Source of the DNA: a virus
IMG/VR virus record: IMGVR_UViG_3300046373_000196
Location: 1 to 64,000 of that record
Length of the DNA: 64,000 bases
Reading direction: 5' to 3' (one strand)
In this document: one piece after another, positions 2,510 to 53,763 of the stretch
Layout of the letters: each line of letters starts with the position of its first letter
How positions within the stretch are numbered: position 1 is the first letter of the stretch
The notes under the pieces: model-generated
Seen by the model: the letters and a program-made list of their open reading frames with translations, nothing else
Database searches by the model: none
What the model was told of the DNA's origin: nothing
Position numbers and translations under genes: made by a program

Positions 2510-2992
2510 TTATGGTGTGGTTACTAGATTCTTTAACTGATCAAAAGGAAAGGCGTACAAGTCTCCTTTATCCACCGCTGTGCCGATGCTATAATACATC
2601 TGAGGCTTTGCGGTTGTGCTGAAATTCGTATCGTTTAAAACCAGCACAAAACCTCGTTTTAAAGGGAATGTCAGATCGTTGATGGAGTTTACAATCACAT
2701 TACCGATCAGCGTTTGAATGTTGACTGTGCTTGGAATCAGGTTTAACTTAAACCCATCCCAGAAATAAATTGTATTGGTTATACCTATACTTTCATCCGC
2801 CTGAACAATGAACTGTTTGGGTATTCCGGGTGTGGTTCGTGTCAGCATTTCAGCGTAGGTATCTGTCCACGTAGCGACCATATCGCGGTCTTGTCTTAAC
2901 ATGGTTCTCAGATATCCTTCGGGCTGCTGCTGCGCGGTTGCTGACAAACAAAATCCAAAACAGAGGATGGGAATTAAAAAGCGAATTTTCAT
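2510..2992 (-). CDS. exported protein, stand-alone copy of the N-terminal domain of 3018..4652
   Basis: Signal peptide MKIRFLIPILCFGFCLSATAQQ. EGYLR..L...RD......DTYAEMLT...PGIPKQF.V..DE..G.TN..Y.WDGF.L is shared with the next gene. Confidence 0.6.
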   Translation of the reverse strand: MKIRFLIPILCFGFCLSATAQQQPEGYLRTMLRQDRDMVATWTDTYAEMLTRTTPGIPKQFIVQADESIGITNTIYFWDGFKLNLIPSTVNIQTLIGNVIVNSINDLTFPLKRGFVLVLNDTNFSTTAKPQMYYSIGTAVDKGDLYAFPFDQLKNLVTTP

Positions 2993-3017: not shown

Positions 3018-4652
3018 TTAATATCTTGTCATTATTACACCAGTCGGTGTTCTGTAGTATGCACCTATTGCAACATTACCTGCAGCGGCAGATGCATTAT
3101 CGGAATAGACGGGTAGAGATGAAGGTTGCGGGAATTTATTTAGATATAAATCAAGTTCTTGTGATGTTGGAACTTTACGCGATCCAATTCGATGAATTTT
3201 AAATTGTGCTGAAACTGGAAGGGTAGTGGAAGCGTCAACAAAGCTAACGCCGAAGGTTGTCACAACGATTGCGGGAACACCTCCGTTTAATTGCATTGGA
3301 GGGGTTTTGATCGTATACCTGCCTACTGGATAGTATGATAAAACAGCCGCATCTGGATAATATCCTTCCGTATATCCTAACTGAGTTGCATAGCCGGCTG
3401 TGTGTACAGTAATCTTTGGTCTTATAGCGTTAATATTGACCATGGGCGAAAGTATTTCAATATCCAGGATACCTTCAATTATATCGCCTTGCTGATAAAA
3501 TGAAGTAACGTAGTCTTGCACGACATTAAACCCTTTTCCATTTCCTGTATAATTACCTGAAATAGTAAACAACTGCTGATTTTGCCCATTAACAACAGAT
3601 TTTGATGGAGTTAATGTTGCTCCTCCTGTAAATTGCTGTGTAGAAAAGCTACTTGCTAATGTAGTACCTCCCGCTAAGGAATAGTTATTAACTCCTTCGG
3701 GGCTTATTTGATAACTTGCTGAAACGTCCTCGATTTCTGCTGCTAAAAGCTGACCCACAGATTTTCCTAACAAGTACGAACCCTGCGCATTAGGGTGTAA
3801 ACCATCGGCAAAGTAAGAAGCACTTGTCAATATTGTTTCGGCATTTACTGTACCGGTTAAATCTTTATTTGCTAAAATCCATGCATTTACATTTGCCCGT
3901 GTCGCCTCATTTGCTGTAGATAGCAAATCTGAAGGCGCATATCTTGGTGGTATCGTAATTGCAATAACCTTACACCCTATAGATAGTAGAGCCTTGTATA
4001 TAATATTCAGGTTGTTCTCTATAACCGCCTCGGATACGGATTGGCCGGTATCATTTGATCCAAGCAAGACAACGGCCATTTTTGGTCTCATAGCCAGGAT
4101 GGCGCCCAGTCGGGCTATAACCTGATCCGTTCGCTCCCCTGAGACCCCTTTATTCCCTCCAATTGGGTAATAATATTTATGACCTGCCGCAATATTTGCG
4201 TGGGTGGGATATCCTGCGCCCTGATAAAAATAGTTTGTACCATTGGCTGTAAAACCATGCTGGGTGATACTATCTCCTATGTAAACTATTTTAGAATCAA
4301 CGGGGAGTTTTTTTAGATTTAAAACCGCCGTATTGTCCGCTGCCGTATAACCAAGAGCCGTATTTATTTGACTGGCATTAATTGCAGGAGCGACTGAACC
4401 ATGCAACTCAAACCCGTCCCAATAGTAAACCACATTCGTTTGTCCGGATACTTCATCCGTTTCCACCACAAACTGTTTTGGGATACCCGGATTCTTCATC
4501 GTTAGCATTTCTGCATACGTGTCAGCCCTTTGGGCAATAAGATCGCGTCCTTCGCGCAAACCTTTACGAAGGTAGCCAGCCGGGACTTGCTGACCGTATC
4601 CGCAAAGGGATATGCTGATCAGTAGTAATGCGGAAATAAACCGTAGTTTCAT
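3018..4652 (-). CDS. exported SGNH hydrolase (GDSL esterase/deacetylase-like)
   Basis: Signal peptide MKLRFISALLLISISLCGYGQQ. SGNH blocks VYIGDSITQHG, VVLLGSNDTG and DGLHPN. The C-terminal 31 aa are shared with 36744..38312. Confidence 0.7.
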   Translation of the reverse strand: MKLRFISALLLISISLCGYGQQVPAGYLRKGLREGRDLIAQRADTYAEMLTMKNPGIPKQFVVETDEVSGQTNVVYYWDGFELHGSVAPAINASQINTALGYTAADNTAVLNLKKLPVDSKIVYIGDSITQHGFTANGTNYFYQGAGYPTHANIAAGHKYYYPIGGNKGVSGERTDQVIARLGAILAMRPKMAVVLLGSNDTGQSVSEAVIENNLNIIYKALLSIGCKVIAITIPPRYAPSDLLSTANEATRANVNAWILANKDLTGTVNAETILTSASYFADGLHPNAQGSYLLGKSVGQLLAAEIEDVSASYQISPEGVNNYSLAGGTTLASSFSTQQFTGGATLTPSKSVVNGQNQQLFTISGNYTGNGKGFNVVQDYVTSFYQQGDIIEGILDIEILSPMVNINAIRPKITVHTAGYATQLGYTEGYYPDAAVLSYYPVGRYTIKTPPMQLNGGVPAIVVTTFGVSFVDASTTLPVSAQFKIHRIGSRKVPTSQELDLYLNKFPQPSSLPVYSDNASAAAGNVAIGAYYRTPTGVIMTRY

Positions 4653-4694
4653 CTATCTTATGTAGTGTGTGATTATTACCGTAAATATAATTAA

Positions 4695-4723
4695 AAATAA
4701 ATATCTTCCTGTGATATTTATTT
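4695..4723. promoter_or_regulatory. 29-bp dyad promoter/operator element, copy 1
   Basis: AAATAAATATC-ttcctgt-GATATTTATTT. Lies upstream of the minus-strand gene starting at 4652. The -7-like TATATTTA (rc of 4682-4689) is only 5 bp from the arm, an outlier in spacing. Confidence 0.6.
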
Positions 4724-4761: not shown

Positions 4762-5277
4762 TTAGGGAAGATTTACACAGGTTTCTGTGATGGATAGATT
4801 GCGCTTCATCCAACCGGCAAAGTATTTCTGTTTTATAGGTGCCTTATCAACGATCTTGTCGTAATAGTCAACCCGTGCCATTGCGTACTGCCAGGGAGTG
4901 ACATTGTGGATCTGCGCCATGGTCTTGTCGCCAAAGTTTCCATCTTCTTTTACGCCAATCACTTTTTGAAGAAGCTTTTTAGCTGCACCAACGCCTGCGT
5001 TAATAGCAAAATCAAGAACATGAAGCCTTATTTTAGCTGGTAAGCGGTCTGCACTGATCTCATTCCAGTAATCCCTTCGGTAAATGGCAAAAGCCTGGTC
5101 TTTGGTCAGGTTTTTAATGTCAACCTTTGGGTAAGAAGCGGCTGAAATGCCGTATTTAGTCCCTTTTAGTTCTCCTTTGCCGATCTTGCCGGTTGTCCAG
5201 TTGCCGGAATCGTCTTTATCGTCAGTAAAGGCACCTTCCTGATCAATGACGTATTTTATTGCTGTCTCGAAGTTCAT
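4762..5277 (-). CDS. endolysin, GH108-like lysozyme with PG_binding_3-like C-terminal domain
   Basis: IKYVIDQEGAFTDDKDDSGNWTTGKIG...GTKYGISAASYP...YRRDYW matches the GH108 pattern. DGNFGDKTMAQI matches the peptidoglycan-binding part. Confidence 0.75.
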   Translation of the reverse strand: MNFETAIKYVIDQEGAFTDDKDDSGNWTTGKIGKGELKGTKYGISAASYPKVDIKNLTKDQAFAIYRRDYWNEISADRLPAKIRLHVLDFAINAGVGAAKKLLQKVIGVKEDGNFGDKTMAQIHNVTPWQYAMARVDYYDKIVDKAPIKQKYFAGWMKRNLSITETCVNLP

Positions 5278-8119: not shown

Positions 8120-9922
8120 TTATTGCAATTTTATTTTTACGATTGTATTGATATTCCCGCCGTTCTGCCCCCATTTATTGCGGTATGGATCGCCTTTGAA
8201 CGTATCGAGCGTGTAAGTGACGGTTGGATTAGCTGGAAGCTGTGGGACGGTGTTTCCTGCCTTTACATAGTCATTCTGCAAAGTCCATAGTGCAGGAGCA
8301 AGCGTAGTAATGTTATTCCCCGCATCACCGTAGGAAAAGGCCATGGCAAAGTGAATGATCTTGCCGCCACGCTTGAAGAAAGAGGAGCCGTAATCAAGAA
8401 GTCTTTGTGAGCTGGTCGGGTTTCCGTAGTAGGTGCTTCCATCGGTTGATAAATCTTCGGGATCAAACTCAATGGCTGCTTCTGCGTTCGGGAACGTCCC
8501 TGCATTGAAATCAGCAGAATAGATTTTATCATTGACTGAATATTGGTTGCCGCCTTCGGAAGAGTAAATCACATCAACGCCTTCAAAGATTTTATTCAGC
8601 CGGTAGGTCATGTACCAGGCGGACTGCGCGCCTCCTGCATCGGCATAAAATCCGCAAACCTTGCCGCCTCCTTCGTGTACACCATCCCGGAAATAAGCGT
8701 GTACAGAGGTTAGTCCGTCGGTTATGAACTCGTACCAGTGCTTGCCGACTGTCGTATTCCACATGTCGCCTGTGGTAAAAGCATCGGTCGGATCCTGTGA
8801 AACAGGTGGAGCAGAGCCAGCCAGACCTTTGCTTGCAATGTAAGAAGCCCACGCGGTGCGCTCTGCTTGTGAATACCCTGTCAATGCAACATTTTTTATT
8901 TCATGCGTTGACGGGTTAAAGCTTTTGATGATCGGATTGTAGTACTCTTCCGTCTCTCCAAAGCCAAGTGAAATGTAGTCCGTATCATTCGGGTACTGTG
9001 CAAGTACCTGCGCCATGTGTTTGACACACTTTTTGAGCTTTTCCTTGCCGGTTTGCGAGTACAGAGCGAATTCATACTTATCATTCTCTAATATCCACAG
9101 TTCACCATTTGATCCTGTCACGCGCTCACCATCGGGTACGAAACCATCACCAATTTTACGCACTCCCCAGAAACAGACACTGAACTTTAAGCCGCGCGAC
9201 TTGCAGTAGTTCATTGCCGCAAGAAGCTTTGCATCGTTGTAGTTGTTTTCAGTCGGTTCGTAGTCCATCCAGCGGACAAGAAGCCTCACACCGTTAATTC
9301 CTGAGAAGGTAGTGCCGTTGTAGGAAAGCGTATTGAAAGCGGTAATCCTTTTTCTCCACTCTTCATTAATTCCGTACTGGTCGGTCGGGTCGAAACCGTA
9401 ACCCGTTGTGTTCATGTAGATCCGTAGCCCACTGGAAGCAACAACAGGCGGCGCAGTCAGGGTAAAGGCTACCGGATTAGGCGTTGTAGGGCACCCGATC
9501 CCTTTGATGTACAGGAAATACTCGCCGTAACCGATCTGGTTATAATTAACTGTAATTGTAGGCGAAGAGCTTGAAGCAGAGCCTTGTCTTACGATGCCTG
9601 TACCGTTTGAGATGTTCCAGACAATATCCGGTACATTCAGTCCTGACCATGTGAAAGTAAGTGAAGTCTGGCTTTTGGCTGTAATGCCTGTGATGGTTGG
9701 ACCCGAGCAGACCGGCGTTGGATTGGTGGGTGTTGTCGGATCAGTCGGATTTGTCGGCGTAGTGCCGCCTGTTGTATCGATCCGGTTCATTAAACTTTCC
9801 AAAAGTAGCTTCACGTACTCCTGTGTCGCTGCTTTTCCTCCGTTGTTAATCCGAAGGTTTACCTGACCCAAACACATGGTATGGACAAGCAAAAGGATTA
9901 TTAAACCTTGTAATTTCTTCAT
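8120..9922 (-). CDS. exported multi-domain protein: fibre-like N-motif, Pro/Thr linker, Cys-bounded Ig-like module, TIM-barrel glycosidase-like domain
   Basis: Signal peptide MKKLQGLIILLLVHTMCLGQ. ATQEYVKLL motif. TNPTDPTTPTNPTP linker. CSGPTITGI...GIGC module. LLVRWMDYEPTENNYND...SRGLKFSVCFWG resembles GH42/GH14-type barrels, recognised by eye only. Confidence 0.5.
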   Translation of the reverse strand: MKKLQGLIILLLVHTMCLGQVNLRINNGGKAATQEYVKLLLESLMNRIDTTGGTTPTNPTDPTTPTNPTPVCSGPTITGITAKSQTSLTFTWSGLNVPDIVWNISNGTGIVRQGSASSSSPTITVNYNQIGYGEYFLYIKGIGCPTTPNPVAFTLTAPPVVASSGLRIYMNTTGYGFDPTDQYGINEEWRKRITAFNTLSYNGTTFSGINGVRLLVRWMDYEPTENNYNDAKLLAAMNYCKSRGLKFSVCFWGVRKIGDGFVPDGERVTGSNGELWILENDKYEFALYSQTGKEKLKKCVKHMAQVLAQYPNDTDYISLGFGETEEYYNPIIKSFNPSTHEIKNVALTGYSQAERTAWASYIASKGLAGSAPPVSQDPTDAFTTGDMWNTTVGKHWYEFITDGLTSVHAYFRDGVHEGGGKVCGFYADAGGAQSAWYMTYRLNKIFEGVDVIYSSEGGNQYSVNDKIYSADFNAGTFPNAEAAIEFDPEDLSTDGSTYYGNPTSSQRLLDYGSSFFKRGGKIIHFAMAFSYGDAGNNITTLAPALWTLQNDYVKAGNTVPQLPANPTVTYTLDTFKGDPYRNKWGQNGGNINTIVKIKLQ

Positions 9923-10110: not shown

Positions 10111-10123
10111 GTAATTTAATATT

Positions 10124-11041: not shown

Positions 11042-11045
11042 CACC

Positions 11046-11656: not shown

Positions 11657-11657
11657 A

Positions 11658-11942: not shown

Positions 11943-12198
11943 CGAACAAAAGAAGCCAATACTAGAAAAAGCAATTGAGCTATTGCCAAAACAATACTTA
12001 ATGTGCTCAGCAATAACCGAAGCGGCGGTTTTGTGTGGAATCCCAAAGGAGGATGCTAAGGATGCGTTTAAGGTGATTCCTGAACTGATGCTTTATATGC
12101 CAGAAGTGAAAGTGACAAAGCATATATGGTTTCACACGGATACTGAAGGGTATAATAAACGCATCAACATTTTAACCGAAATCTATAACCAATTGTAA
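11917..12198 (+). CDS. hypothetical protein, tandem paralogue B
   Basis: See 11658..11942. The start may be the second Met at 11929. Confidence 0.5.
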   Translation: MTGSMGLSNEQKKPILEKAIELLPKQYLMCSAITEAAVLCGIPKEDAKDAFKVIPELMLYMPEVKVTKHIWFHTDTEGYNKRINILTEIYNQL

Positions 12199-12200
12199 GT

Positions 12201-12581
12201 ATGAGTGTACTAAAATTAACCATTAAAAAAGAATGGTTCGACATGATAAATTCGGGCGTTAAAAAAGAAGAGTACCGTGAGATAAAACCATATTGGGTTA
12301 GTCGATTATTCAAAGCGGATTTTGGATCGCTGGACTTAAAAGAAGCACATGATTACATGAAAGAAGGTTTACGATTAGCGTACAAATTTCCAAATGGACA
12401 CTTTACAACTCCTAGATTTTCAACTATAGAGTTTAAAAATGGATATGCAAAAGATGCTCCAACTATTCATGTGGTATGTGAAGGAATTACAATTGGAGAA
12501 GCAAAGCCGGAATGGTCTAATAATTGGCAGGGGAAAGTTTTTGTAATTAAGCTAGGAGATATTTATAGAAACGACATATAA
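12201..12581 (+). CDS. ASCH domain-like protein
   Basis: LKLTIKKEWFDMINSGVKKEEYREIKPYW matches the ASCH N-terminal pattern. Confidence 0.6.
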   Translation: MSVLKLTIKKEWFDMINSGVKKEEYREIKPYWVSRLFKADFGSLDLKEAHDYMKEGLRLAYKFPNGHFTTPRFSTIEFKNGYAKDAPTIHVVCEGITIGEAKPEWSNNWQGKVFVIKLGDIYRNDI

Positions 12582-16342: not shown

Positions 16343-16510
16343 ATGAGAACTGTAAGCTGGGTTATTATTGAAACGGCAACAGGTAGAGCAGTTTTAGAAA
16401 CATATCAAAAATCTATCACAGAAAAGGTTAACACTGACAAGTATTTGGTTATCCCAATACTGTTATATTTACAGAATTTAAACAAAAACTATGGGATTAA
16501 CAAACTATAA
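16343..16510 (+). CDS. hypothetical small protein (55 aa)
   Basis: My translation: MRTVSWVIIETATGRAVLETYQKSITEKVNTDKYLVIPILLYLQNLNKNYGINKL. It fills the gap between neighbouring genes. Confidence 0.35.
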   Translation: MRTVSWVIIETATGRAVLETYQKSITEKVNTDKYLVIPILLYLQNLNKNYGINKL

Positions 16511-16775
16511 AGTAACCTATGAATGTGACTGTGGGGAAAATTGGGGAGATTGCGACAAAAGAAGTTTCTTTATTCTCCAATATAACAGGACTGTTGATAT
16601 CGGAACGCTTTTTCACAAGCATCATGCTGATGATGAAAATTCAAAAATGCAAGACTTAGGGGCATTTACCGATAAAGGACTTGCTGCGTTAGTAAAAGTG
16701 CTGACACAGTCGGATCCAGATGAAGAAACTAATGAAGCGGATGAAAAAGATATAAAAGAAGCAAGGGGTTATTAA
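16491..16775 (+). CDS. hypothetical acidic protein
   Basis: ORF track. Confidence 0.45.
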   Translation: MGLTNYKVTYECDCGENWGDCDKRSFFILQYNRTVDIGTLFHKHHADDENSKMQDLGAFTDKGLAALVKVLTQSDPDEETNEADEKDIKEARGY

Positions 16776-16785
16776 CCCCACAAAA

Positions 16786-16841: not shown

Positions 16842-18320
16842 TTAAAGCGTTATCAATGTCGAATGAATCCCGGCACCTGAAACCACAGCGGTGTACACCT
16901 TGGAAGCGTCAAGCGGATGTTGTATCTCAATGGATTTACGGGTATTGTCAGCCCACGGGTTATAGTACATAATCGCCATTTTATTACCCAGGATACGGCA
17001 TCTTACAAAGCCGCGCTTTTCGTACCAGCAATCCACCAGATCAGCACCTACGGAAGATTTTTCAACCCAGTTTCCGCCATTGATCCGGTAACGCGCGTAG
17101 TAAGGTGTTCCGCTTGCCACCTGACCGGCTGTCTGATGCCAAAGTAAATTTCCATAGTAAGACAAATCACCGCCACCGGTTGACCACTGATTTCCGGCAT
17201 GTGGGAAATTTGGCTGTGCGCTGGTAGCTCCGTTAGGCCACCATTCGTCGCCTGGATTAAGATCAACTTTTTTATCCGGGTCCTGAAACGGGTAAACACC
17301 CCACTCAACAAAAACTTTTCCATATTCCTGCGCAAGAAAAGCCCATGCCATGTGATAAACCGGATCCAGTAAAGCTTTATCACTTTTATAGTAAATTCCG
17401 TCCGGATATGTTATTCCTTTTTTCCAGTTAGGGTTCCATTCGTGTGAACCAAATATGAAAACACCGGTATCTTTACCAAGTTTTTTCATCAGATCCATTT
17501 TAAACAGACCTCCTATAATATCCCCTAGTTCATCCGGGTTCGGCTTATAAACGGTGATAACAAACAGGTTGGTAGCACTTAACGTACCGCCTGGATGAAA
17601 CTGGGTGCGATCCCATGTGGAAGGATCCGTAGTGTACATGTTCGCATGTTCCGTCCTTGATCTTTGCCCTAAGGCCCAGGCTGAACCGCGATCAGGAACT
17701 GTACCAATACCCAGATATAAATAAGAATGACACACATAATAAGCCCGGCCATCAATAGCTTTCTGTGCTTCGTAGCGTTCTTTTAATCTTTCATAAAACC
17801 AGCCCCACATCGGGTAAGATTCAGGCATGTGATCTTCTCCTTCCGTGGTTTCTGCAATCCAGAGACTAGGCAAAGAACTTTCATTTGCTTTCTGGATTGC
17901 CTGAGCCTGATTGTAAGGGCCATTAGGCCACCACCGTTTCCAGTAACCTCCTTCGGTAATGTCCGGTCCGGTCGGGTTTAAACCAAATATCTCACGGGTA
18001 CGGGGAACGTTATTGTATTCCATGCCCGGATACTGCGCACGTACAGATGCATCCTGACCATCTCCGACGTGTCCGCGCGTCCAGTGCGTTACACCTTTGG
18101 CGAAAATCTGAGGAAGTGTCCAGCCTAATTTATTTTGATTTAATACAAAATAATGACCGCTAGGCATGGTCATATCCGGGGCAACGTCAGCCCATGTGGC
18201 AACTTGTTTGGTTAGGTCAGCATAAATAGGTATCTGACGTTTCCAGGTAATTGCAGTCTGCGCATGCACAAAGCCGGAAACAGCAAGCAGTGCAAATAAT
18301 AAACTTTTAAACTTTTTCAT
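16842..18320 (-). CDS. exported protein, possible polysaccharide-active enzyme (function unassigned)
   Basis: Internal Met at 18320 gives the signal peptide MKKFKSLLFALLAVSGFVHAQ and is preceded by a CACACAC leader. Third gene of the 20006->16842 operon. Confidence 0.55.
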   Translation of the reverse strand: MKKFKSLLFALLAVSGFVHAQTAITWKRQIPIYADLTKQVATWADVAPDMTMPSGHYFVLNQNKLGWTLPQIFAKGVTHWTRGHVGDGQDASVRAQYPGMEYNNVPRTREIFGLNPTGPDITEGGYWKRWWPNGPYNQAQAIQKANESSLPSLWIAETTEGEDHMPESYPMWGWFYERLKERYEAQKAIDGRAYYVCHSYLYLGIGTVPDRGSAWALGQRSRTEHANMYTTDPSTWDRTQFHPGGTLSATNLFVITVYKPNPDELGDIIGGLFKMDLMKKLGKDTGVFIFGSHEWNPNWKKGITYPDGIYYKSDKALLDPVYHMAWAFLAQEYGKVFVEWGVYPFQDPDKKVDLNPGDEWWPNGATSAQPNFPHAGNQWSTGGGDLSYYGNLLWHQTAGQVASGTPYYARYRINGGNWVEKSSVGADLVDCWYEKRGFVRCRILGNKMAIMYYNPWADNTRKSIEIQHPLDASKVYTAVVSGAGIHSTLITL

Positions 18321-18330
18321 CGTGTGTGTT

Positions 18331-19497
18331 TTATCTGAATATAAAGGTGGCGTAGGCTCCTGAGACGTTCCCTTGCATAAAAACTCCGGCAGCACAATCA
18401 TAATAGTATGTATTCTGGTTACAGTCTGCGATCCACTTGCCAAAGCTATCAAGGCCTATCTTACCCTGCATTTTAACAATACGGCCGGGGTTATTATTCT
18501 GGTAAGAGTAGTTGCTTAAAGGCGTGTTTCTTTTAATAATTTCACCGCCGATTACGTACGTCCACTCATAGCCAGAATTCAAAGGATAGGTTGCGATATC
18601 ATTAATGATCCAGTTCTTGGAACTGCCTGTAAATTGCAGGTTCATTATTGTAGTCTGTCCCTGATAAACAATCCTTGCCGTTACGTTGGGCTCTTCCGGG
18701 TCTGGATCAGGATCGACCGGTGTCGGATCGGTTGGGCCCGTGCTGGTTGTGACTGTAAAGGTCTTGTCTGACATCCCGGTACACAGCACACCGTAAAAGT
18801 GCAGGTTGTAGTTACCGTCAGGGATTCCCGGGTACGAAAGATTGACCGTTGATGATGTAGGCGTGATTTGCCCTGTTCTAAGCTTGATATTGGGCGTAGA
18901 AGCATTGGTTATCCACCATCCGATCTGCGTAACGCCGTTGCCGTGAAAAGTGGCTGTTAATCCGGTTTGTGTAGGGTTAACGATGGTGAGTATTGTTGGC
19001 CCTGCACTGCAATTCGGCAAGGGCTGCGTAGGATCTACCGGATCTGTGGGATCGGTAGGATCGGTCGGGTCTGGATTATCACCGCCACCAAGATTGTAAT
19101 TAAACCCTACATAGCACGTTGGACGCGCGGTTGGCCTGATGGTGATACGCACACTGTCAAGTTGTGGTACGCCTTCAATCCGCATGGTTTCACCCGTTTG
19201 ATAAGGGACTGCATTCCAAAACCACGATTTATCGTTCTTGACAATCCGGATCGAGTAGTTATTTAGTCCCTGAATCGAAGAACTCAGACCAAGTTCAATT
19301 GCTGAACCGTCCTGCACGATCGAGCTTATCTTTAAATCACAGTCAGAAATGTTATACTTCTCTAACTGATCGAAAAGATAATTCTGTACCCATTCTTCGG
19401 TCGCTACATTGCCTGATGCAGGATACGTGATAACAGACTGGGAAAATCCTGGAAGAGCCGCTACAAGTAGTAGCAGATTTAGAAAGTACTTTCTCAT
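18331..19497 (-). CDS. exported protein with fibre-like N-motif, PTDP linkers and Cys-bounded Ig-like module
   Basis: Met at 19497 gives MRKYFLNLLLLVAALPGFSQS. ATEEWVQNYL motif, DPTDPTDPTDPVDPT linker, and NCSAGPTILTI...YPGIPDGNYNLHFYGVLCTG module. ATGA overlap with the upstream gene. Confidence 0.6.
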   Translation of the reverse strand: MRKYFLNLLLLVAALPGFSQSVITYPASGNVATEEWVQNYLFDQLEKYNISDCDLKISSIVQDGSAIELGLSSSIQGLNNYSIRIVKNDKSWFWNAVPYQTGETMRIEGVPQLDSVRITIRPTARPTCYVGFNYNLGGGDNPDPTDPTDPTDPVDPTQPLPNCSAGPTILTIVNPTQTGLTATFHGNGVTQIGWWITNASTPNIKLRTGQITPTSSTVNLSYPGIPDGNYNLHFYGVLCTGMSDKTFTVTTSTGPTDPTPVDPDPDPEEPNVTARIVYQGQTTIMNLQFTGSSKNWIINDIATYPLNSGYEWTYVIGGEIIKRNTPLSNYSYQNNNPGRIVKMQGKIGLDSFGKWIADCNQNTYYYDCAAGVFMQGNVSGAYATFIFR

Positions 19498-20006
19498 TTC
19501 TTCCTTACGATAAAGTCCTCTGAATCTCTTCCGGTGCACGTGTTCGCAATTAGTGTTAGATGATAGGCTCCATCAGGCAGATTCGGATAGCCAAGTCTGA
19601 TCGTGTTGGAGGTAGGCGTTACCGATCCTTTGGTGATCGTTTCGTAGACCGGCCCAAGAAGCAGGTAATCCATCCCTTTCACATTCAAACCGTCAAACAC
19701 CACTGAAATCCCGATGGATGCATCATACGTCACTTTTGTGATCGTTGGCCCTCTGTCACAATTCGGGAGCGTTACAACCGGAGTTGTCGGAATCGTCGGG
19801 ATAGAAGGATTGGTCGGGATAATAACCGGTGGGATGTTGATTACAACGCCGGACTGCGCTTTTGCCAGTGAATCAAATTTGGCCTTGATGCGCTTTTCCA
19901 CATACTCTTCCGAGGCGATCTTTCCGGGTGGAAATGTGAGCGTAGTCTGAGCCAGTACCCCGTCATACAACAGCAGCCCAAATAAAATAAATAGTAAGTT
20001 CTTCAT
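19494..20006 (-). CDS. exported protein with fibre-like N-motif and Cys-bounded Ig-like module
   Basis: Signal peptide MKNLLFILFGLLLYDGVLAQ. ASEEYVEKRI motif, Pro-rich linker, and NCDRGPTITKV...YPNLPDGAYHLTLIANTCTG module. Confidence 0.6.
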   Translation of the reverse strand: MKNLLFILFGLLLYDGVLAQTTLTFPPGKIASEEYVEKRIKAKFDSLAKAQSGVVINIPPVIIPTNPSIPTIPTTPVVTLPNCDRGPTITKVTYDASIGISVVFDGLNVKGMDYLLLGPVYETITKGSVTPTSNTIRLGYPNLPDGAYHLTLIANTCTGRDSEDFIVRKK

Positions 20007-20101
20007 TGCCTGTACGTGTGTGTGTGATTGCTGCTCTATTACTGATCTTCAATCAATTGAATACGAGCATAGAGCATACAGACAAAGATAATTATTTTCG
20101 T

Positions 20102-20130
20102 AAATAAATATCGTAGATAGATATTTTTAT
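20102..20130. promoter_or_regulatory. 29-bp dyad promoter/operator element, copy 3 (bidirectional)
   Basis: AAATAAATATC-gtagata-GATATTTTTAT. -7 boxes TAGCTTTG at 20145-20152 (+) and TATCTTTG (rc of 20083-20090, -). Confidence 0.7.
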
Positions 20131-21801: not shown

Positions 21802-21819
21802 ATTTGCAATTTATTTACA

Positions 21820-21848
21820 AAATAAATATCATAATACAATATTTATTT
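21820..21848. promoter_or_regulatory. 29-bp dyad promoter/operator element, copy 4 (head-tail operon)
   Basis: AAATAAATATC-ataatac-AATATTTATTT. -7 box TACATTTG at 21862-21869 (+). Confidence 0.7.
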
Positions 21849-21948
21849 GATTTTTTAATTATACATTTGTTGTGTATGATAAAAGCCAAGTTTTCATTCG
21901 ATTGAACCCTTGGAACGACAGAATACTACACACACACTTAATTATTTC

Positions 21949-22617: not shown

Positions 22618-22653
22618 GTAAGCATTTAACACACACACTTAATTTCTTGACAA

Positions 22654-23247: not shown

Positions 23248-23273
23248 TCACACACTGAAACACACACACTAAT

Positions 23274-24371
23274 ATGAGCAAGTTCAAATCCATTTTTGGA
23301 GAATATGCTTCAAACCTTCAGTTGGTGATCGACAGCAAATTAAACAGCTTCGCTCCAACCTGGTATCCGAAGTATTTCGGATGGTCGCCAACTCAGCAAT
23401 CTTTAACGTTCCAGTCAGCAATTGGCCGCGCACGTATAGAGGCTATGGCATCCATCGTTAACCGCGATTCTACCACTCCGCTTCGTAGCCGTCAAGGTCT
23501 TGAAAAATTGTCTGGTGAAATTCCGGCAATTAAGGAGATGTTTAAAATGCAGGAAAGCGACTATCGCGAATTCCTGTCATTGCAAAACATGCCTGTAGAT
23601 GACAACACCAAGAGAATTCAACTTTTAGATTTCCTTTTCGGGGATGTTAAAAAAGTAGGTGATGCAGCCCATAAACGTCTTGATGCAATGGCATTGGAGG
23701 CAATCTCTACGGGTTTTATCACGGTAACAGTAGGCAATAACCCTGATGGTTTGGTGCTTACTTCGGCTGTCCCTCTTGGGATGCCACCTGAAAACTTCGT
23801 ACAAAGTCCTTTTACCTGGGCAAACCCAACAACGGCTACTCCAATTTCAGATATTGAAACTGTAAATCAGTTGGCGTTTGAAAAAGGCATTGGACTTGAA
23901 AAAGTTCTTATGTCCATGGCGTTGTTCCGCAAGTTCAAGAAAGCAAAAGAAGTACTGGACACGCTGCAAGCTTTCTATTACAGCTCGAAGCCAGGCGGAT
24001 CTTTCAATCCTGTTGCGATCACAGCACTGGATAAAGTGAACGAAGCATTGCAGGCGCAGGGACTTCCTTACATCGAAATCGTAAACGAAGCGACTGGTAT
24101 TGAAAAAGATGGTTCAATTACTGTATTCCGCGCATTCAACGAAAACAACGCAGTATTTGTACCAGGCGGTCAGCTTGGAACGATCAAAAACGCTCTTGCA
24201 ATTGAACAATTCCGCCCTGTTACGCAGGTAGGTTATGGTAATTACAACCGCGCTGTGATTTCTAAATGGTCTGAAAACGAACCTTTTGGAGAGTGGACTA
24301 AGGTTGAGCTTAATGCTTTTCCTGCAGTTGAAGCGATTGATAGCATGTACATCCTGACAGCTTCATTCTGA
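23274..24371 (+). CDS. major capsid protein (gpE-like by size, position and pattern)
   Basis: 365 aa, strong CACACAC leader, lies between the scaffold and head-tail connector genes. Confidence 0.65.
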   Translation: MSKFKSIFGEYASNLQLVIDSKLNSFAPTWYPKYFGWSPTQQSLTFQSAIGRARIEAMASIVNRDSTTPLRSRQGLEKLSGEIPAIKEMFKMQESDYREFLSLQNMPVDDNTKRIQLLDFLFGDVKKVGDAAHKRLDAMALEAISTGFITVTVGNNPDGLVLTSAVPLGMPPENFVQSPFTWANPTTATPISDIETVNQLAFEKGIGLEKVLMSMALFRKFKKAKEVLDTLQAFYYSSKPGGSFNPVAITALDKVNEALQAQGLPYIEIVNEATGIEKDGSITVFRAFNENNAVFVPGGQLGTIKNALAIEQFRPVTQVGYGNYNRAVISKWSENEPFGEWTKVELNAFPAVEAIDSMYILTASF

Positions 24372-27004: not shown

Positions 27005-27222
27005 AATCCACTTTCGGCTCACGCGGTTCTATTAGAAACCATTTACATCTAACCCGACATGAGATGCTATGGGAATATCCCTATGCTGAGATTATGCGCA
27101 TGCTAATCGATCAGCCATCCTTCGAAACCGACGATAAAACTTCCCCGCAAAAAGAAAAAGTAGTCGATCACGACGGGTTGATCGCTTCGCTAATGAATTT
27201 TCAATCTAATCTTCCCCGGTAA
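26941..27222 (+). other. -1 frame extension (gpT-like) reachable by programmed frameshift from the chaperone gene
   Basis: The -1 frame is open from at least 26941 (KDSDDDKTAADREKRAKQQGLKSTFGS...MNFQSNLPR) with no start codon of its own. It ends at a TAA overlapping the tape-measure ATG (TAATG). A-runs at 26959-26962 and 26978-26982 lie in the overlap. Confidence 0.6.
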
Positions 27223-30200
27223 TGAATAATAATAGCGGTGCTTTATCATTTGATGCGATTGTAGACGATGCTCAATGGTCTGCCACATTTAGGCGAATGA
27301 ATAATGATGTTCGGGGGTTAACAAATACTGCTACTACTGAAACAAATAAAATAGATGCGGTTTTCAGGCAGCTGGCAACCGTTGCCGGAGGAGCCTTCGC
27401 CTTTACTCAACTAGCATCACTTCCTCAAAAGCTTATCCAGGTTCGCGGTGAATTCCAGCAATTGGAAATTGCCTTTGAAACAATGCTTGGCAATAAAGGC
27501 AAGTCTGATGCCTTGTTTGCTGATGTGGTTAAGCTGGCGGCTACAACACCCTTTAATCTAAAAGAAGTCGCTACCGGCGCAAAACAGCTCCTTGCGTATG
27601 GTGTAGCCAGTGAAGATGTAACCAAGACCATGACAAAGCTTGGTGATATCGCAGCCGGACTTTCGATTCCTTTAAATGATCTTACTTATCTGTACGGTAC
27701 AACACGGACACAGGGACGGCTATTCACAGCAGATTTAAACCAATTTGTAGGACGTGGTATTCCATTGATCCGGTTATTATCAGAACAATTTGGTGTAGCA
27801 GAATCCGAGGTTAAGAACCTGGTGGAAGCCGGTAAAGTTGGTTTTCCGGAAGTTGAAAAGGCAATCAATACGCTGACACAATCAGGCGGGATGTTCTCTG
27901 GTTTAATGGAGAAACAAAGTAAATCACTTACAGGTCTTTACTCCAACTTTCAGGATTCGGTTGATCAGGCATTCAACAATGTTGGTAAAAGTCAGGAAGG
28001 GTTACTTGCTTCGGGTATTGGCTTTGCAACTACGATGGTTCAGAATTATGAACCGATCCTGGATGTATTAAAAGTCCTTGTTGCTACCTATGGAACGTAC
28101 AGAGCTGCCATCATTGCAACCGCTGCCGTTCAAGGTTTAGCTGCTAGCGCAGGATCAATAAAAACATTCTTCGAACTTTCAAAAAGTATTAAATCTGCTG
28201 CCGATGCTCAGGCGTTATTCAATCTGGTAACAGGTCTAAATCCTTATGTGGTTGCCGGTGCTGCATTGGTCGGTTTGATCACCGCCGTAGCTTTGTTCCG
28301 GGACACAACCACAGAAGCCGAAAAAGCGCAGAAGCGCATGGCGAATGTCAATGACACGGTTTCTCAATCCTTGGCAGGTGAGCAGGCGAAAATACAGGTA
28401 TTAACCGCACAGATCAAGAACGAAAGCGTTTCAAGAGAAGAGAGAAATAATAAGCTTCGTGAATTAATATCCATTCAGCCACAGCTTTTAAGTGGTCTGA
28501 CACTTGAAAATATTGCCACAGCCGAAGGGACAAAAGCAATCAACGGCTACATCGAAGCACGTAAACGCCAGATTGAAACAGAGCAGTTAAAGAACGAGTT
28601 GGACGAAAGTATCAAACGCCAGAACGATGCAAAATCCGGCAAAAAAGAAACCGGCGTTGTAGCTACGGTTTTAGGTGCAGCTTTATCGGTGGGCAATGCA
28701 GTTGCATCCGCTACGTCCGGCGTTGATCTGGCTAAGATTCAGGCGGCTAATACTAAGGCGGCGAATAAGGAAATAATAAAAAGTGAGGATGAACTTCAAA
28801 AGACAATCCTTGCCCGCGTAACCGCCTTACAGTCGGTTGATGCAGCTACTTTAAAATCAGGTGACAGTACCAAAGAAGTTGTTAAAAAGAACGTCAAGTA
28901 CTACGATGATCTAATTAAAGCCAAAAAGGATTCACAGGAAAGCGCAACGACCAATGCGGAATTCAATAAGCTTGAAGCCGAAATCAAAAACCTGGAAGCG
29001 CAGAAAGCCAGGATCACCGGCGCAATATCCAAAGAAGCCAAAGTAGCCAGCAAAGCATCGGCAAAAGAGGCTGAAAAATCAGGTCCATTCGGTTCAGTGG
29101 CTTACTGGGACTACATCGCAAGCAAGGCCAAAGAAATCCTTGATAAAACACCGGTTAGCAATACAGGTCAAATAGCTAAACAGCAGGCTATTCTTACCGA
29201 TGCTGAAAGAAATGCAGCATTAGCGCGTAAAAAGCTTGCCATTCTCACCTTCGACGAAGAGCTTGAACAAAAGAAAAAGAATTACGAGGCTTATCAGTTA
29301 TGGGTTGATAATCTAGGCACAAAAGCTGCTGATGAACACTTCGACGGACTGATCACGCAAGGTAAGTCTTACGCGGAGTATCTCAAACAGCAGATCGACC
29401 AGTTTCAATCCGTTCATCCTGAATCGTTAACCGGCAAAGAGCAGGATCAGCTAGTTAAACTTAAAGTTGAGTATTCCGATGCAACCAATGCGCAGAAACC
29501 GATGGAACTGTTTCAAAAGCGTTTGGATGATGCCAGAACGTCGGCTACTTCTTTAACGGATGAGATTGAACGGCTTAAAAAGATTCAGTCGGAGTTATCC
29601 CCAACGGATTTATCTCCTGATACCACAGCTAAAAAACAGGCTACACAGGAACAAATCAATGAGGCGACCGCGCAGCGTAAACTTGAATTCCGAAATTACC
29701 TTCTCGACGTTGCCGGATCAGAACAAAAACGCCTTGAAATCGAAAACCGCTTCAAAGACCTAAGGGTTGAACTGGAAAAGCAGTACGGCAAAGAAAAAGG
29801 TGCCGCCTACCTTAAAGCTTTAAAACAACTTCAGGAAGACGAAAAAGAGGCATACAAAAATCAAGACGTTCAATCTGCTGAAAAATCAAAGGAATTCAAG
29901 GAGTTCACAAAAATTGCCAAGCTTTCCAATGATGAAATAGGGCGGGATAAAGTCATTCAGGCGCGAAAAGACTTTGCTGAATTCACTAAAAATCTCGATA
30001 AGGAATCCGAAGAGTACCGTCAACACCTTGAAACGCTTCGTGGTATTGAAGAAAACTACAAAGAGAAAAGTATTACGTATTGGGATCTTGTAGCCGGGGC
30101 TATTGGGCAGATTAGCGAAGTGCTACAAGAAATGGGCGGCGGAATTGGTCAGGTAGGCTCTGCTTTATCTAGCTTGAGTGGCCAGTACGGAAATATTAAG

Positions 30201-31508
30201 CAGGCTTTCACTACGAATAAAGATGGTTCAACTAGTATGAACCAATATGCTGCTGCTATTCAAGGAGTTATAACAATTATTGGTGGGCTGACTGCTGCAT
30301 CTAAACGCAGACACGAAGAAGAAAAAGCGTTTGCAGCCGCTCGTTTGGGTTACGAACAAGACTACCAACTTGCCTTAAATCAAGAGCTAGGAGATTCTTA
30401 CAAAAAGAAAGAAAATCCTTACGTCAATGATATTCAGGCTAAAATAAAATCCGGTGTCGACCAATATAAGGACGCGCAGGAAAAATACCAGGCTGCAATA
30501 GATAAACTCGACGAAGGCCGATCTAAAAAGAATCAAAAGAATGTCGTTGACGGCAAGTCAGTCGGACAATTAGCAGGTGCAGGAGCGGCGGCCGGTGCCG
30601 TCATTGGTGGAATTGTCGGAGTTGGAGTGTTTTCTGTTGCTACGGCGGCAGTAGGGGCAGTTATCGGTGGCGCAGTCGGTGCGATATCCGGACTTTTTGC
30701 CAAGAAAAAGAAAGATGTTTACGGCTCTCTTTTAGAAGAGTATCCGGCACTGATTGATAAAAGTGCGGATGGTTGGGAAACGCTGAATGTGGCAATGGCG
30801 AAGTCATTAATTGCTAACAACCAATTAGATGATAAAACCAAAGAGCTAGTACAAACCGCTATCGAATACAATGAACAGCTTCAGGAAGCTAAACAGCAAA
30901 TCGAAGATGGAATTGTAGAGCTGACTGGGCAAATGGGTGATAGTATCCGTAACGCTCTGATCACTGCTTTTAGGGATGGAACGGATGCGGCGTTAGCCTT
31001 TGGGGATGCCGTTGGTGATGTAATTGGCAATGTTGTAGAGCAGTTATTGTTTGCAAATTTGATGCAACCGGCTTTGGATAGATTCCTTGAAGAAGCTACT
31101 CAATCATTAACTACGGGTGATGGATCTATTGTAGATGATCTTAACCGTTACAAAGACTATGGCAAAGCAGGTGCAGATGCTTACACTCAGGGATTAGCAG
31201 AGCTTGATCAGTTCTTGAAAGACAATGGGTACTCGAAAGGATTTGGCAAAACAGGATCAACATCAGCCAGCCCAATGCAGGGAGCTATTGCCGGAGTTTC
31301 CGAGCAAACAGCCGGCGTTCTGGAGGGAAATATCACAGCAATCAGGATCGGTCAGGCAGATGCCAATGTGATCTTACGGAATTCTTTGTTTCAACTTACT
31401 GCCATAGCTCAAAATACGAGTTATAATGTGCTTTTAGTAGATATCAATAAAAAGCTGGATAAACTTAATCTGCTTGACACCAATTACAACCGTCAATACG
31501 GCGGATAA
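27222..31508 (+). CDS. tail tape measure protein
   Basis: 1428 aa. TP901-type TMP core near the N-terminus (AATTPFNLKEV...GIPLIRLLSEQFGV...GGMFSGLMEKQ), long coiled-coil, and a Gly-zipper TM-like segment (GAGAAAGAVIGGIVGVGVF...GGAVGAISGLF). Confidence 0.9.
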   Translation: MNNNSGALSFDAIVDDAQWSATFRRMNNDVRGLTNTATTETNKIDAVFRQLATVAGGAFAFTQLASLPQKLIQVRGEFQQLEIAFETMLGNKGKSDALFADVVKLAATTPFNLKEVATGAKQLLAYGVASEDVTKTMTKLGDIAAGLSIPLNDLTYLYGTTRTQGRLFTADLNQFVGRGIPLIRLLSEQFGVAESEVKNLVEAGKVGFPEVEKAINTLTQSGGMFSGLMEKQSKSLTGLYSNFQDSVDQAFNNVGKSQEGLLASGIGFATTMVQNYEPILDVLKVLVATYGTYRAAIIATAAVQGLAASAGSIKTFFELSKSIKSAADAQALFNLVTGLNPYVVAGAALVGLITAVALFRDTTTEAEKAQKRMANVNDTVSQSLAGEQAKIQVLTAQIKNESVSREERNNKLRELISIQPQLLSGLTLENIATAEGTKAINGYIEARKRQIETEQLKNELDESIKRQNDAKSGKKETGVVATVLGAALSVGNAVASATSGVDLAKIQAANTKAANKEIIKSEDELQKTILARVTALQSVDAATLKSGDSTKEVVKKNVKYYDDLIKAKKDSQESATTNAEFNKLEAEIKNLEAQKARITGAISKEAKVASKASAKEAEKSGPFGSVAYWDYIASKAKEILDKTPVSNTGQIAKQQAILTDAERNAALARKKLAILTFDEELEQKKKNYEAYQLWVDNLGTKAADEHFDGLITQGKSYAEYLKQQIDQFQSVHPESLTGKEQDQLVKLKVEYSDATNAQKPMELFQKRLDDARTSATSLTDEIERLKKIQSELSPTDLSPDTTAKKQATQEQINEATAQRKLEFRNYLLDVAGSEQKRLEIENRFKDLRVELEKQYGKEKGAAYLKALKQLQEDEKEAYKNQDVQSAEKSKEFKEFTKIAKLSNDEIGRDKVIQARKDFAEFTKNLDKESEEYRQHLETLRGIEENYKEKSITYWDLVAGAIGQISEVLQEMGGGIGQVGSALSSLSGQYGNIKQAFTTNKDGSTSMNQYAAAIQGVITIIGGLTAASKRRHEEEKAFAAARLGYEQDYQLALNQELGDSYKKKENPYVNDIQAKIKSGVDQYKDAQEKYQAAIDKLDEGRSKKNQKNVVDGKSVGQLAGAGAAAGAVIGGIVGVGVFSVATAAVGAVIGGAVGAISGLFAKKKKDVYGSLLEEYPALIDKSADGWETLNVAMAKSLIANNQLDDKTKELVQTAIEYNEQLQEAKQQIEDGIVELTGQMGDSIRNALITAFRDGTDAALAFGDAVGDVIGNVVEQLLFANLMQPALDRFLEEATQSLTTGDGSIVDDLNRYKDYGKAGADAYTQGLAELDQFLKDNGYSKGFGKTGSTSASPMQGAIAGVSEQTAGVLEGNITAIRIGQADANVILRNSLFQLTAIAQNTSYNVLLVDINKKLDKLNLLDTNYNRQYGG

Positions 31509-31585: not shown

Positions 31586-32410
31586 TTAAAATTTCCTTAT
31601 TGGCCTAACTCTACCATAGAAAGCACCTTTCTCGTAATTAGTACCGGTTAATGCAACAAAATTAAGCCCATAAGCTTTTGTGGCTGATGTTTCGGTAGAT
31701 GACCAGTACAATCCACTAGAAAATACAGTTGAGAAACCTCCAATAATAGATTTGTTATCTCGAAGTAATTCTAACTCATCAACTGACGGAATGTACCAGT
31801 CCTTATAACCATTTAAGTTTAATTCATTTTTAAAAGGATATGCGGCATAGTATGTTGATCCCGACACTACGGCCATTTTCTTTGTATTACTTTGCCCATC
31901 ACTATCATTTGTACCTACCAAGTTGGAGGGGCCCCAAAAGAATGTTTCATATCCATTAACATCTCTAAGGTTTTCTTTGGAAGCAATTAATCCAGTTTTT
32001 CCATCCTGGTTAATAAAAAATATTTTACCACCCCTATATTCATCACCAATTAATAATTTTATAGAGAATTTCGATTCTGACTTAAACTCATTGTTTTTAT
32101 CTGAGGTTGCAACAACAGTTAACGAATGTTCGCCACCATCAACATCTTTTGGCGTCCACTTGAAATTATAAGGTGACGCTATGACTGAGCCGATACTAGA
32201 GCCATCGACGAAATATTCAACTTTTTTAACGGGGTTGCTTGTAGTTGACTGGAATTCGTAATCTACATTGTTGTTTAGTATCTTATTCGCAGTCGGCGAA
32301 ATAATTGAGACTGTAATATTTTCTACTGGATCAGGATCAACAGTGTTATCTTTAGAAGGGCATCCAAAGCATAAAAATGAAATAGCAATAATAGGAAGAT
32401 ATTTTTTCAT
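31586..32410 (-). CDS. lipoprotein with Ig-like domain and DUF1566 (Lcl C-terminal-like) domain
   Basis: Lipobox LCFGC. The Ig-like segment VKKVEYFVDGSSIGS...YNFKW resembles a bacterial Ig domain. DWYIPSVDELELL and GLYWSSTE match the DUF1566 pattern. Confidence 0.65.
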   Translation of the reverse strand: MKKYLPIIAISFLCFGCPSKDNTVDPDPVENITVSIISPTANKILNNNVDYEFQSTTSNPVKKVEYFVDGSSIGSVIASPYNFKWTPKDVDGGEHSLTVVATSDKNNEFKSESKFSIKLLIGDEYRGGKIFFINQDGKTGLIASKENLRDVNGYETFFWGPSNLVGTNDSDGQSNTKKMAVVSGSTYYAAYPFKNELNLNGYKDWYIPSVDELELLRDNKSIIGGFSTVFSSGLYWSSTETSATKAYGLNFVALTGTNYEKGAFYGRVRPIRKF

Positions 32411-53741: not shown

Positions 53742-53763
53742 TTTCAATCACACACGATAATCA

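Follow-up and report, generated by a model that had tools for sequence, protein, structure and literature searches.

In the accepted view, tailed phages put their particles together entirely inside the cytoplasm. Why, then, would a tailed phage place export signals on proteins that resemble tail fibres? The question is raised by three adjoining genes, here called P1 (19494..20006), P2 (18331..19497) and P3 (16842..18320), which form one minus-strand operon in the IMG/VR virus record IMGVR_UViG_3300046373_000196. The stretch analysed, hereafter the window, is the first 64 kb (64,000 nucleotides) of this 79,327-bp record, which has direct terminal repeats, is rated complete and represents a siphophage according to its PHROG and Pfam matches. 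The core of the answer is considered probable, namely that the operon encodes an exported, fibre-derived unit that binds and hydrolyses glycans, is expressed late and includes a partnership between P3 and the C-terminal domain of P2 (P2C). Held more tentatively is the fuller explanation that P1-P3 are host-recognition or depolymerase gear, which is matured outside the cytoplasm and works with the virion.

The three open reading frames (ORFs) are present where a preliminary description of this DNA had placed them. The translational coupling it proposed for P1 and P2 is visible as an ATGA overlap at 19494-19497, and the 11-nt gap it gave between P2 and P3 is to be corrected to 10 nt between the P2 stop and the P3 ATG (AACACACACG). 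Signal peptides were called on all ORFs by a heuristic combining hydrophobicity and cleavage site. The N-termini of P1 (aa 1-19, 19950-20006), P2 (aa 1-19, 19441-19497) and P3 (aa 1-20, 18261-18320) consist of one to three Lys/Arg residues, a hydrophobic core of 10-15 residues and a small residue at position -1, followed by Gln at +1. Cleavage is predicted at VLA/QT, GFS/QS and VHA/QT, respectively, in the sequences MKNLLFILFGLLLYDGVLA/Q, MRKYFLNLLLLVAALPGFS/Q and MKKFKSLLFALLAVSGFVHA/Q, where the slash marks the cut. Among the 130 ORFs of the whole 79-kb genome, ten have N-termini of the signal peptidase I (SPI) type, nine of them with Gln at +1, and one protein (31586..32410, FLCFG/C) has a lipobox. 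All signal peptides listed in the preliminary description, those of P1-P3 included, are among these calls, and the protein it had named a lipoprotein is the one with the lipobox. Its remark that so many exported proteins are unexpected in a phage also holds, as ten SPI-type proteins here compare with one or two in each of two rumen Bacteroides phages (PMC5723332). In the phylum Bacteroidota, most SPI substrates show Gln at +1, a trait specific to this phylum and known as the Q-rule (PMC5837995). Because the phage N-termini obey this phylum-specific rule, they are more than mere hydrophobic stretches, and on the sequence evidence the export signals of P1-P3 are genuine and selected.

Cleavage of P1-P3 by SPI before Gln would leave the proteins without an obvious route to the cell surface. 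None of the ten exported proteins has a C-terminal sorting domain of the type IX secretion system (T9SS; TIGR04183/TIGR04131 type) at NCBIfam E<=1 or Pfam E<=0.01, which rules out T9SS sorting as the way to the surface. Moreover, P1-P3 carry Gln rather than Cys at +1 and have no lipobox. With neither a T9SS domain nor a lipobox, they should stay periplasmic after cleavage until lysis. Export to allow O-glycosylation was also considered and rejected, since the motif D-[ST]-[AILMTV] is not enriched (0.25 per 100 aa versus 0.34 in virion proteins).

The operon shares its expression signals with the structural genes. Its late promoter/operator lies on the minus strand at 20083..20126, with the inverted repeat AAATATC-N7-GATATTT inside a 42-nt conserved block and the -7 box TATCTTTG (20090-20083). 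The 42-nt pattern has three matches in the window versus 0 expected; thus the repeated promoter, whose third copy had been said to drive P1-P3, is real. A looser promoter core is found in six copies in the genome, at 4682-4704, 9952-9993, 20085-20126, 21807-21829, 46452-46493 and 51904-51926, and each copy places an inverted repeat (AAATAAATATC...GATATTTATTT) across the -33 region of a TAnnTTTG promoter. Six operons stand behind it: those of P1, of 8120..9922 (leading into the lysis genes), of an exported esterase, of the head (21910) and of the tail tip (51957), and one that begins at 46493. The third minus-strand core (4682..4704) precedes the esterase operon of 3018..4652, 2510..2992 and 1124..2494. 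The element is likely the binding site of a phage late regulator. Additionally, the window has 23 copies of the (CA)n tract ACACACAC, where 0.99 are expected, and nearly all of them lie just upstream of late-gene starts. On the coding strand, (CA)n is found 2-15 nt upstream of the starts of capsid, scaffold-like, major-tail-like, lysis and exported genes, that at 36744 included. One tract (20016..20025, minus strand) is placed 10 nt upstream of the P1 ATG, another (18322..18329, minus strand) fills most of the 10-nt P2-P3 gap, and a third (9930-9937) is ahead of 8120..9922. Further tracts are located at 5809-5816, 7126-7135, 21928-21937, 22629-22638, 23260-23269, 25902-25909, 38329-38336, 47465-47472 and 51943-51952. 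The tract has the appearance of a translation leader peculiar to this phage, whose host seems to rely little on Shine-Dalgarno sites. Since both the promoter element and (CA)n are common to the head and tail operons, P1-P3 look like strongly expressed late genes. The operon adjoins the head operon, away from the Dit and Tal genes. A terminator-like hairpin with a T-rich tail (16765..16779, minus strand) lies 63 nt past the P3 stop and is common to the convergent plus-strand gene 16491..16775.

The architecture of the exported proteins is that of fibres. P1 (170 aa), the product of the first gene of the operon, has after its signal an N-terminal strand-helix 'plug' (QTTLTFPPGKIASEEYVEKRI, about 19872-19949), followed by a Pro/Thr/Ile linker and one Cys-bounded FN3-like module, C83-C157 (19503-19760). 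P2 (388 aa) has the N-plug with a helix at 34-48 (19354-19440), a beta-sandwich A (aa 56-134, C53/C128, 19096-19332), a Pro/Thr/Asp linker, a Cys-bounded FN3-like module (aa 163-249, 18751-19011), a second linker and P2C (aa 274-388, 18334-18678). Further away on the minus strand, 8120..9922 (600 aa) is the first gene of an operon running into the lysis cassette, and its product combines a signal peptide, an N-plug (GGKAATQEYV), a Pro/Thr linker, a Cys-bounded module and a 436-aa C-terminal domain. When P2 was compared with the phage's own genome by tblastn, only P1 (E 2e-17, 36% identity) and 8120..9922 (E 1.5e-13, 41%) were matched. Both shared features noticed earlier in these three proteins, the Cys-bounded module and the motif G-[KN]-x-A-[TS]-[EQ]-E-[YW]-V, therefore reflect true paralogy and not chance; G29, A32, V37, C163, G166, P167, I169 and C239 are invariant in their alignment. 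The three proteins have a common plug and differing distal domains. P3 has a signal peptide, and neither the motif nor the Cys module. The number of Cys residues is even in each P2 domain and in the single P1 module, and the first two pairs are conserved; owing to this, there is probably about one disulfide per FN3-like domain, formed outside the cytoplasm.

In general form, the plug pattern after the signal is Q-x-x-(I/V/L)-x-(F/L/I/Y)-P-x(2-4)-(I/L)-A-(T/S/G)-x-x-(W/Y/F)-V, and it is present in 14 of the 34 long signal-bearing members of the P3 family. Among loci of relatives (numbered with L), it was seen in the five phage or prophage loci with N-termini read, namely the window, L004, L024, L029 and L030, and L008 and L011 have a coiled-coil variant in its place. 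No plug is found in the chromosomal copies L020-L023, L026 and L028, of which L022, L026 and L028 are those whose neighbourhoods were checked as phage-free.

Structure models support the fibre-like build of P2. Its AlphaFold2 model has a predicted local distance difference test (pLDDT) score of 67 overall and 78-90 in the last two domains (the Cys module and P2C), and comprises the signal helix, a helix over ATEEWVQNYLFDQLEKY and three beta-sandwich domains split by low-confidence Pro/Thr/Asp linkers. Foldseek matches the model to tandem FN3 arrays (probability 1.0, E 1e-7), so that the Ig-like nature earlier ascribed to the module is upheld, and it also finds the FN3 strings of T5 pb4 and lambda gpJ. 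P2 has no Pfam match, and its family numbers five proteins among 5.8e9; faint or clear fn3 matches are found on the proteins that partner P3 in L026 and L028.

P3 (492 aa) is of another kind. Behind its signal are an alpha/beta barrel-like domain (about aa 22-404, 17109-18257) with conserved E157, E160, H198-x-Y200, Y258 and E294-W295, and a C-terminal beta-sandwich (aa 405-492, 16845-17108). The AlphaFold2 model (pLDDT 70, predicted template-modelling score 0.73) alternates strands and helices before the C-terminal sandwich. Foldseek gives weak matches (E about 1e-3, template-modelling score about 0.3) to GH13, GH30, GH66 and GH27, and the best of them (GH13, GH30, GH66) are all glycosidases built of a barrel and a C-terminal sandwich. 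Across 36 diverse homologues, E160, Y200 and Y258 never vary, and E157, E294 and P297 hardly ever do. Clan GH-A comprises (beta/alpha)8-barrel enzymes whose two catalytic carboxylates stand at the ends of strands 4 and 7, and which combine such a pair of acids with an H-x-Y motif. P3 looks, from model and alignment, like a TIM-barrel glycosidase with a beta-sandwich, of an unannotated family. Of the enzymatic activities proposed in the preliminary description, the glycosidase holds to the extent that P3 is glycosidase-like by weak fold matches and conserved acids. Searches of curated resources returned little else. P1-P3 have no Pfam, PHROG or NCBIfam match except one to a low-complexity linker, no curated family covers any of the 36 P3 homologues, P3 has no match in a PDB sequence search and nothing significant in a fold search of BFVD, and no DNA or protein match was found in GenBank phages for the region, P2, P3 or a signal-less relative. 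The C-terminal domain of 8120..9922 (residues 165-600) belongs to a rare family of 19 proteins among 5.8e9, which is covered by no curated family and reaches only E 0.2 in a PDB sequence search; in some of the other members, the domain is joined to an esterase (PF00756) or to a serine hydrolase of the beta-lactamase type (PF00144). The P3 barrel, P2C and the 8120..9922 C-terminal domain are accordingly three unannotated families and candidates for new polysaccharide-active enzymes.

Most of the new evidence comes from the relatives of P3. A profile search of 1.84e9 representative proteins yielded 93 P3-family clusters, and relatives were also traced with a degenerate HEWRPNN DNA pattern. Among 79 near-full-length representatives, 39 have a signal peptide, 31 of them with [AGSC]Q at the cut, and 40 have none. 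Signal-less stand-alone homologues start only 1-3 residues from the predicted cleavage site of the signal-bearing forms, which makes the signal a clean add-on. A FastTree tree of 75 P3 domains requires no fewer than 15 switches of signal state, about 10 of them imposed by well-supported branches; some of the long sequences scored there as signal-less may stem from incomplete gene predictions.

In the relatives, P2C without exception either ends the protein whose gene immediately precedes that of P3 or is fused to P3. The split arrangement, with both pieces signal-bearing, is found in the window, in L004 and in L026 and L028, two chromosomal neighbourhoods devoid of phage genes; where the unit is divided in this way, both parts have a signal of their own. 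In L007 and L027, P3 has no signal and comes after a long fibre-like protein with P2C at its end; the N-terminus of that partner is beyond the contig end. L006 has one signal-less 1140-aa protein, encoded directly after baseplate hub and wedge-like genes, whose C-terminal half consists of the Cys module, P2C and P3. Signal-bearing fusions occur in the viral contigs L008, L011, L029 and L030 and in Dyadobacter and Telluribacter chromosomes. At every locus where both N-termini are readable, the signal states of the partners agree. Because of the strict gene adjacency and the fusions, P2C and P3 are regarded as partners. The earlier claim that the proteins are fibre-like and exported by a Sec-type route is well founded, as the signals follow the Q-rule and the P2C-P3 unit is a signal-less fibre tip in relatives.

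In some relatives, the gene order around the signal-bearing forms also resembles that of tail fibres. The fusion of L011 comes after a 1068-aa fibre-like protein, and in both L011 and L029 it is directly ahead of lysis-like genes. In L030 (IMGVR_UViG_3300023104_000127, 2335-12440), the tape measure is followed by a 490-aa protein without a family, a signal-bearing 853-aa fusion of plug, module and P3, and four small lysis-like genes; the exported fusion thus occupies the receptor-binding-protein slot of a siphophage. The cassette is syntenic in three related phages, beside head and lysis genes, and a P1-like first gene is kept in L004 and in L024, a prophage of Dyadobacter sp. 3J3 (GCA_009801115.1, VTOL01000003.1 64151-85926). 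In this prophage, the head operon is followed divergently by a P1-like gene, a P2-stalk gene with another distal domain, an 8120-like gene, the lysis cassette and an M15 peptidase gene. The 861-aa stalk protein shares 67% identity with P2 residues 1-247 and then has an unrelated C-terminus. It was considered as a P2-P3 fusion and rejected, since only residues 1-247 match P2 and an hhalign comparison with the P3 profile gives a probability of 1.6%. On sequence comparison, a P2 stalk kept constant while the distal part is swapped matches the way in which receptor-binding proteins exchange their parts.

The host is very probably a Dyadobacter (Spirosomaceae, Bacteroidota). This follows from L024, which shows the same gene order and close protein copies (8120..9922 has a 61% identical copy in Dyadobacter sp. 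3J3), from the occurrence of chromosomal P3 relatives in Dyadobacter and Telluribacter, and from the Bacteroidota -7 box TAnnTTTG of the promoters.

A sequence of events can be proposed on this basis. P1-P3 would be transcribed late from the promoter/operator of the head and tail type and translated from (CA)n leaders. Each protein would be exported and cut by SPI before Gln, and the FN3-like domains would fold in the periplasm, probably with one disulfide each. The plug of P1, P2 and 8120..9922 would then oligomerise or dock the proteins, and P2C would hold the glycosidase-like P3, as gene adjacency and the fusions in relatives suggest. Once the cell is opened by the GH108 endolysin cassette, the exported fibres would meet finished particles, and P1-P3 could from then on serve with the virions as side fibres or depolymerase, either attached or co-acting, to recognise and cut a surface polysaccharide of the host. 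It is possible that the exported fibres also strip the receptor from the dying cell, in a dual role of stripping first and then riding the particle. Still more tentative is the generalisation that Bacteroidota siphophages build fibres and depolymerases outside the cytoplasm, through Sec export, a pyroglutamate end, periplasmic oxidation, joining to the tail at lysis and docking by the plug.

Known systems offer partial parallels. In the Cellulophaga phage phi10:1 (NC_021802, 41847-48878), a Q-rule signal peptide is present at the start of each of gp091-gp095; the annotation of gp091-gp094 cites experimental tandem mass spectrometry (MS/MS) proteomics, three of the four being named structural proteins, gp093 and gp095 are pectate lyases, and 'tail fiber protein' is also among the names. 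Like the phage studied here, phi10:1 is a Bacteroidota siphophage, and its run of fibre and polysaccharide-degrading genes ends the tail module just before membrane-protein (lysis-like) genes. However, a tblastn search of GenBank phages with P2 and P3 detected no resemblance of its proteins to P1-P3, and it has pectate lyases instead of a barrel-type hydrolase and no plug motif as defined here. No discussion of the phi10:1 signals in print was found. The 'Nixviridae' prophages of P. gingivalis encode five Q-rule proteins of unknown function, for which envelope modification has been proposed (Matrishin et al. 2023, PMC10367356). These resemble P1-P3 in being phage-encoded, predicted SPI substrates with Gln at +1, whereas no fibre or enzyme architecture is stated for them, no link to tail fibres is made and no homology is shown.

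The exchange pattern of P2 also recalls depolymerases. Phage tailspike and tail-fibre depolymerases have a conserved N-terminal anchor and an exchangeable C-terminal enzyme, and soluble free forms occur too. P2 likewise has a conserved N-terminus and a swapped distal domain, a glycan-cutting domain would be placed at the fibre tip, and signal-less homologues reside in baseplate or fibre modules. In contrast, P3 falls outside the described depolymerase families, and its modelled fold is barrel-like and not a beta-helix; to our knowledge, phage depolymerases have no signal peptide and are assembled in, or released from, the cytoplasm. With T5 pb4 (7zn2) and the lambda gpJ central fibre (8xci), P2 shares the bead string of FN3/Ig-like sandwiches (Foldseek E about 1e-6 to 1e-5), but the match is at the level of fold only (8-11% identity) and is surpassed by those to eukaryotic fibronectin arrays; signal peptides are absent from pb4 and gpJ. 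Phage proteins that do depend on Sec include signal-peptide and signal-arrest-release endolysins (fOg44 Lys44), the exclusion lipoproteins T5 Llp and TP-J34 Ltp, and lambda Bor and Lom. Like P1-P3, they use the host Sec machinery to reach the envelope, but they are single small lysis or exclusion proteins, many expressed from prophages, whereas P1-P3 are multi-domain and under a late structural promoter. The literature search found no description of export signals on tail-fibre-like or depolymerase-like proteins.

The data can also be read differently. P1-P3, 8120..9922 and the SGNH esterase 3018..4652 may be free exported enzymes, delivered to the periplasm or envelope late in infection, that are never on the virion and that bind and cut the host's surface or nascent polysaccharide. 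The receptor would then be destroyed, so that progeny are not trapped on debris and superinfection of the dying cell is prevented, or slime would be loosened for release. This corresponds to the proposal of the preliminary description with lysogenic conversion left out. We regard it as only a little less probable than the virion-linked reading. PslG, BcsZ and AlgL are Sec-exported periplasmic enzymes that cut the cell's own polymer, encoded in exopolysaccharide operons and not in phages; they provide a functional analogy, with no sequence or specific fold relation shown. The genuine export signals suit such enzymes, and so does the enzyme-rich composition of the exported set (the SGNH esterase, glycosidase-like P3 and the 8120..9922 domain elsewhere fused to esterases). 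Signal-bearing homologues also serve cells as normal exported proteins encoded in chromosomes, among them those of Dyadobacter and Telluribacter, and one such homologue adjoins sulfatases, GH127 and sugar-acid catabolism genes, and in three related phages the genes share a block with the lysis cassette. Several facts weigh against a role on the virion. Signal-bearing P2-like/P3 pairs and fusions occur in phage-free chromosomal neighbourhoods (D. jejuensis, L026, L028), so the exported form can work without a virion. The phage already has Dit and a 1183-aa Tal in a separate operon, which could suffice for adsorption. No attachment site for P1-P3 on the particle is identified. The phi10:1 proteins are analogues and not homologues, and their detection by mass spectrometry can reflect co-purification. 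The structure models reach only moderate confidence, and an enzymatic activity of P3 is a prediction. We also know of no tailed-phage virion protein that passes through Sec. On the other side, free enzymes with no T9SS domain or lipid anchor would stay periplasmic, the phage-specific plug and the constant N-terminus with a variable C-terminus look like virion docking, and the signal state flips often within one domain family. Moreover, L030 has no other receptor-binding candidate from the tape measure to the lysis genes, and the phi10:1 analogues were found in virion preparations. The premise of the preliminary description that an exported protein is not a virion protein is thus unsafe in view of the fibre-tip relatives, the L030 slot and the signal-bearing proteins in the phi10:1 MS/MS data.

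Three further explanations are improbable to differing degrees. Lysogenic conversion, which the preliminary description had offered, would make P1-P3 a moron, that is, a host-derived operon of carbohydrate-active enzymes expressed from the prophage for the host, for foraging or surface change. An integrase-like gene (59439..60707, recognised by eye), the relative integrated in Dyadobacter sp. 3J3, the chromosomal homologues and a G+C content of 0.47 in the P1-P3 region, above the phage mean of about 0.40, would agree with it. Yet the structural genes have a similar G+C content, and the cassette keeps its place beside head and lysis genes in the three related phages. A lambda-type moron is recognised by a promoter and terminator of its own, with expression from the prophage that is distinct from late transcription, and the P1-P3 operon has instead the promoter/operator of the head and tail-tip operons and the (CA)n leader common to the capsid and tail-tube genes, which makes this origin unlikely. 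Slightly less likely again, the proteins could be lysis accessories, periplasmic enzymes that act on peptidoglycan, its modifications or outer-membrane-linked glycans and so aid the GH108 endolysin. Exported genes do flank the lysis cassette, with 8120..9922 upstream and the SGNH esterase directly downstream of the endolysin, and in L011, L029 and L030 the lysis genes come immediately after a signal-bearing P3 fusion. The same position is, however, the normal place of tail-fibre genes; P3 relatives are tail-fibre tips, one chromosomal copy lies in a sugar-catabolism neighbourhood, and P3 shows no similarity to known cell-wall hydrolase families in Pfam, PDB sequence, Foldseek and family searches. 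Least likely of all, the N-terminal hydrophobic segments would be idle during infection, as tethers or bypassed, with tail assembly in the cytoplasm as for ordinary fibres. The easy interchange of signal-less and signal-bearing forms would allow this, and cleavage of P1-P3 is a prediction. Against it stand the tight match to the Q-rule (9/10) with small residues at -1, and the conserved Cys pairs per domain, which fit an oxidising compartment. Furthermore, P1-P3 have no in-frame ATG within 30 codons past the signal, and so no start for a signal-less isoform. The preferred reading of P1-P3 as virion-associated gear matured outside the cytoplasm is retained on these grounds, with the tentativeness stated at the outset.

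Other genes of the phage give the setting of the operon. PHROG and Pfam matches identify the major capsid protein (23274..24371), the tape measure (27222..31508), Dit (53764..55005), the Tal-like protein (54987..58538), the portal and large terminase (76.5-79.2 kb, minus strand) and the GH108 endolysin (4762..5277). About 20 kb of minus-strand genes part the tape measure (27222..31508) from the Dit/Tal operon (51957..58538), and a tail module split so far apart (27222-58538) is unusual for a siphophage. The tail-tip proteins were compared with those of L004-L030 for hints of a shared docking partner, and no similarity was found.

Several of the remaining exported proteins deserve mention. The signal-peptide protein of 1124-2494 is homologous over residues 180-456 to tail-fibre, minor-tail and tailspike proteins (E down to 8e-11) of Rhodococcus, Gordonia, Arthrobacter, Stenotrophomonas and Pectobacterium phages, with a weak discoidin (F5/8 type C) match; it is another fibre domain behind an export signal. 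The exported proteins of 2510-2992 and 3018-4652 have a paralogous start after the signal (QQQPEGYLRTMLRQDRDMVA and QQVPAGYLRKGLREGRDLIA). The latter is an SGNH/GDSL esterase (E 3e-18), whose gene comes immediately after that of the GH108 endolysin, and may, from its family, be a de-O-acetylase of sugar or peptidoglycan. It was compared with a 1259-aa SGNH fibre-like protein of L024, and homology was rejected as only the catalytic block aligns. The lipoprotein of 31586-32410, encoded antisense right after the tape measure, combines a Big_7 Ig domain with an adhesin-like Lcl C-terminal domain and is a candidate surface or exclusion protein.

What is new here is the switch between signal-bearing and signal-less forms within one family, with a signal on each piece where the unit is split, together with a phage-specific plug, late co-regulation and a cultured host. 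Q-rule signals mark Bacteroidota phages and so provide a practical rule for host prediction, and the prophage of the cultured strain Dyadobacter sp. 3J3 is a ready experimental system. More broadly, a tail-fibre-tip family switches repeatedly between cytoplasmic and Sec-exported forms. If the exported forms act free of the virion, they would represent a receptor-destroying strategy from inside the envelope, with a logic comparable to that of viral neuraminidase. If they end on the virion, they would explain Bacteroidota phage fibre genes mis-annotated as 'secreted hypothetical proteins', and they would add a new, extracytoplasmic step to tailed-phage assembly.

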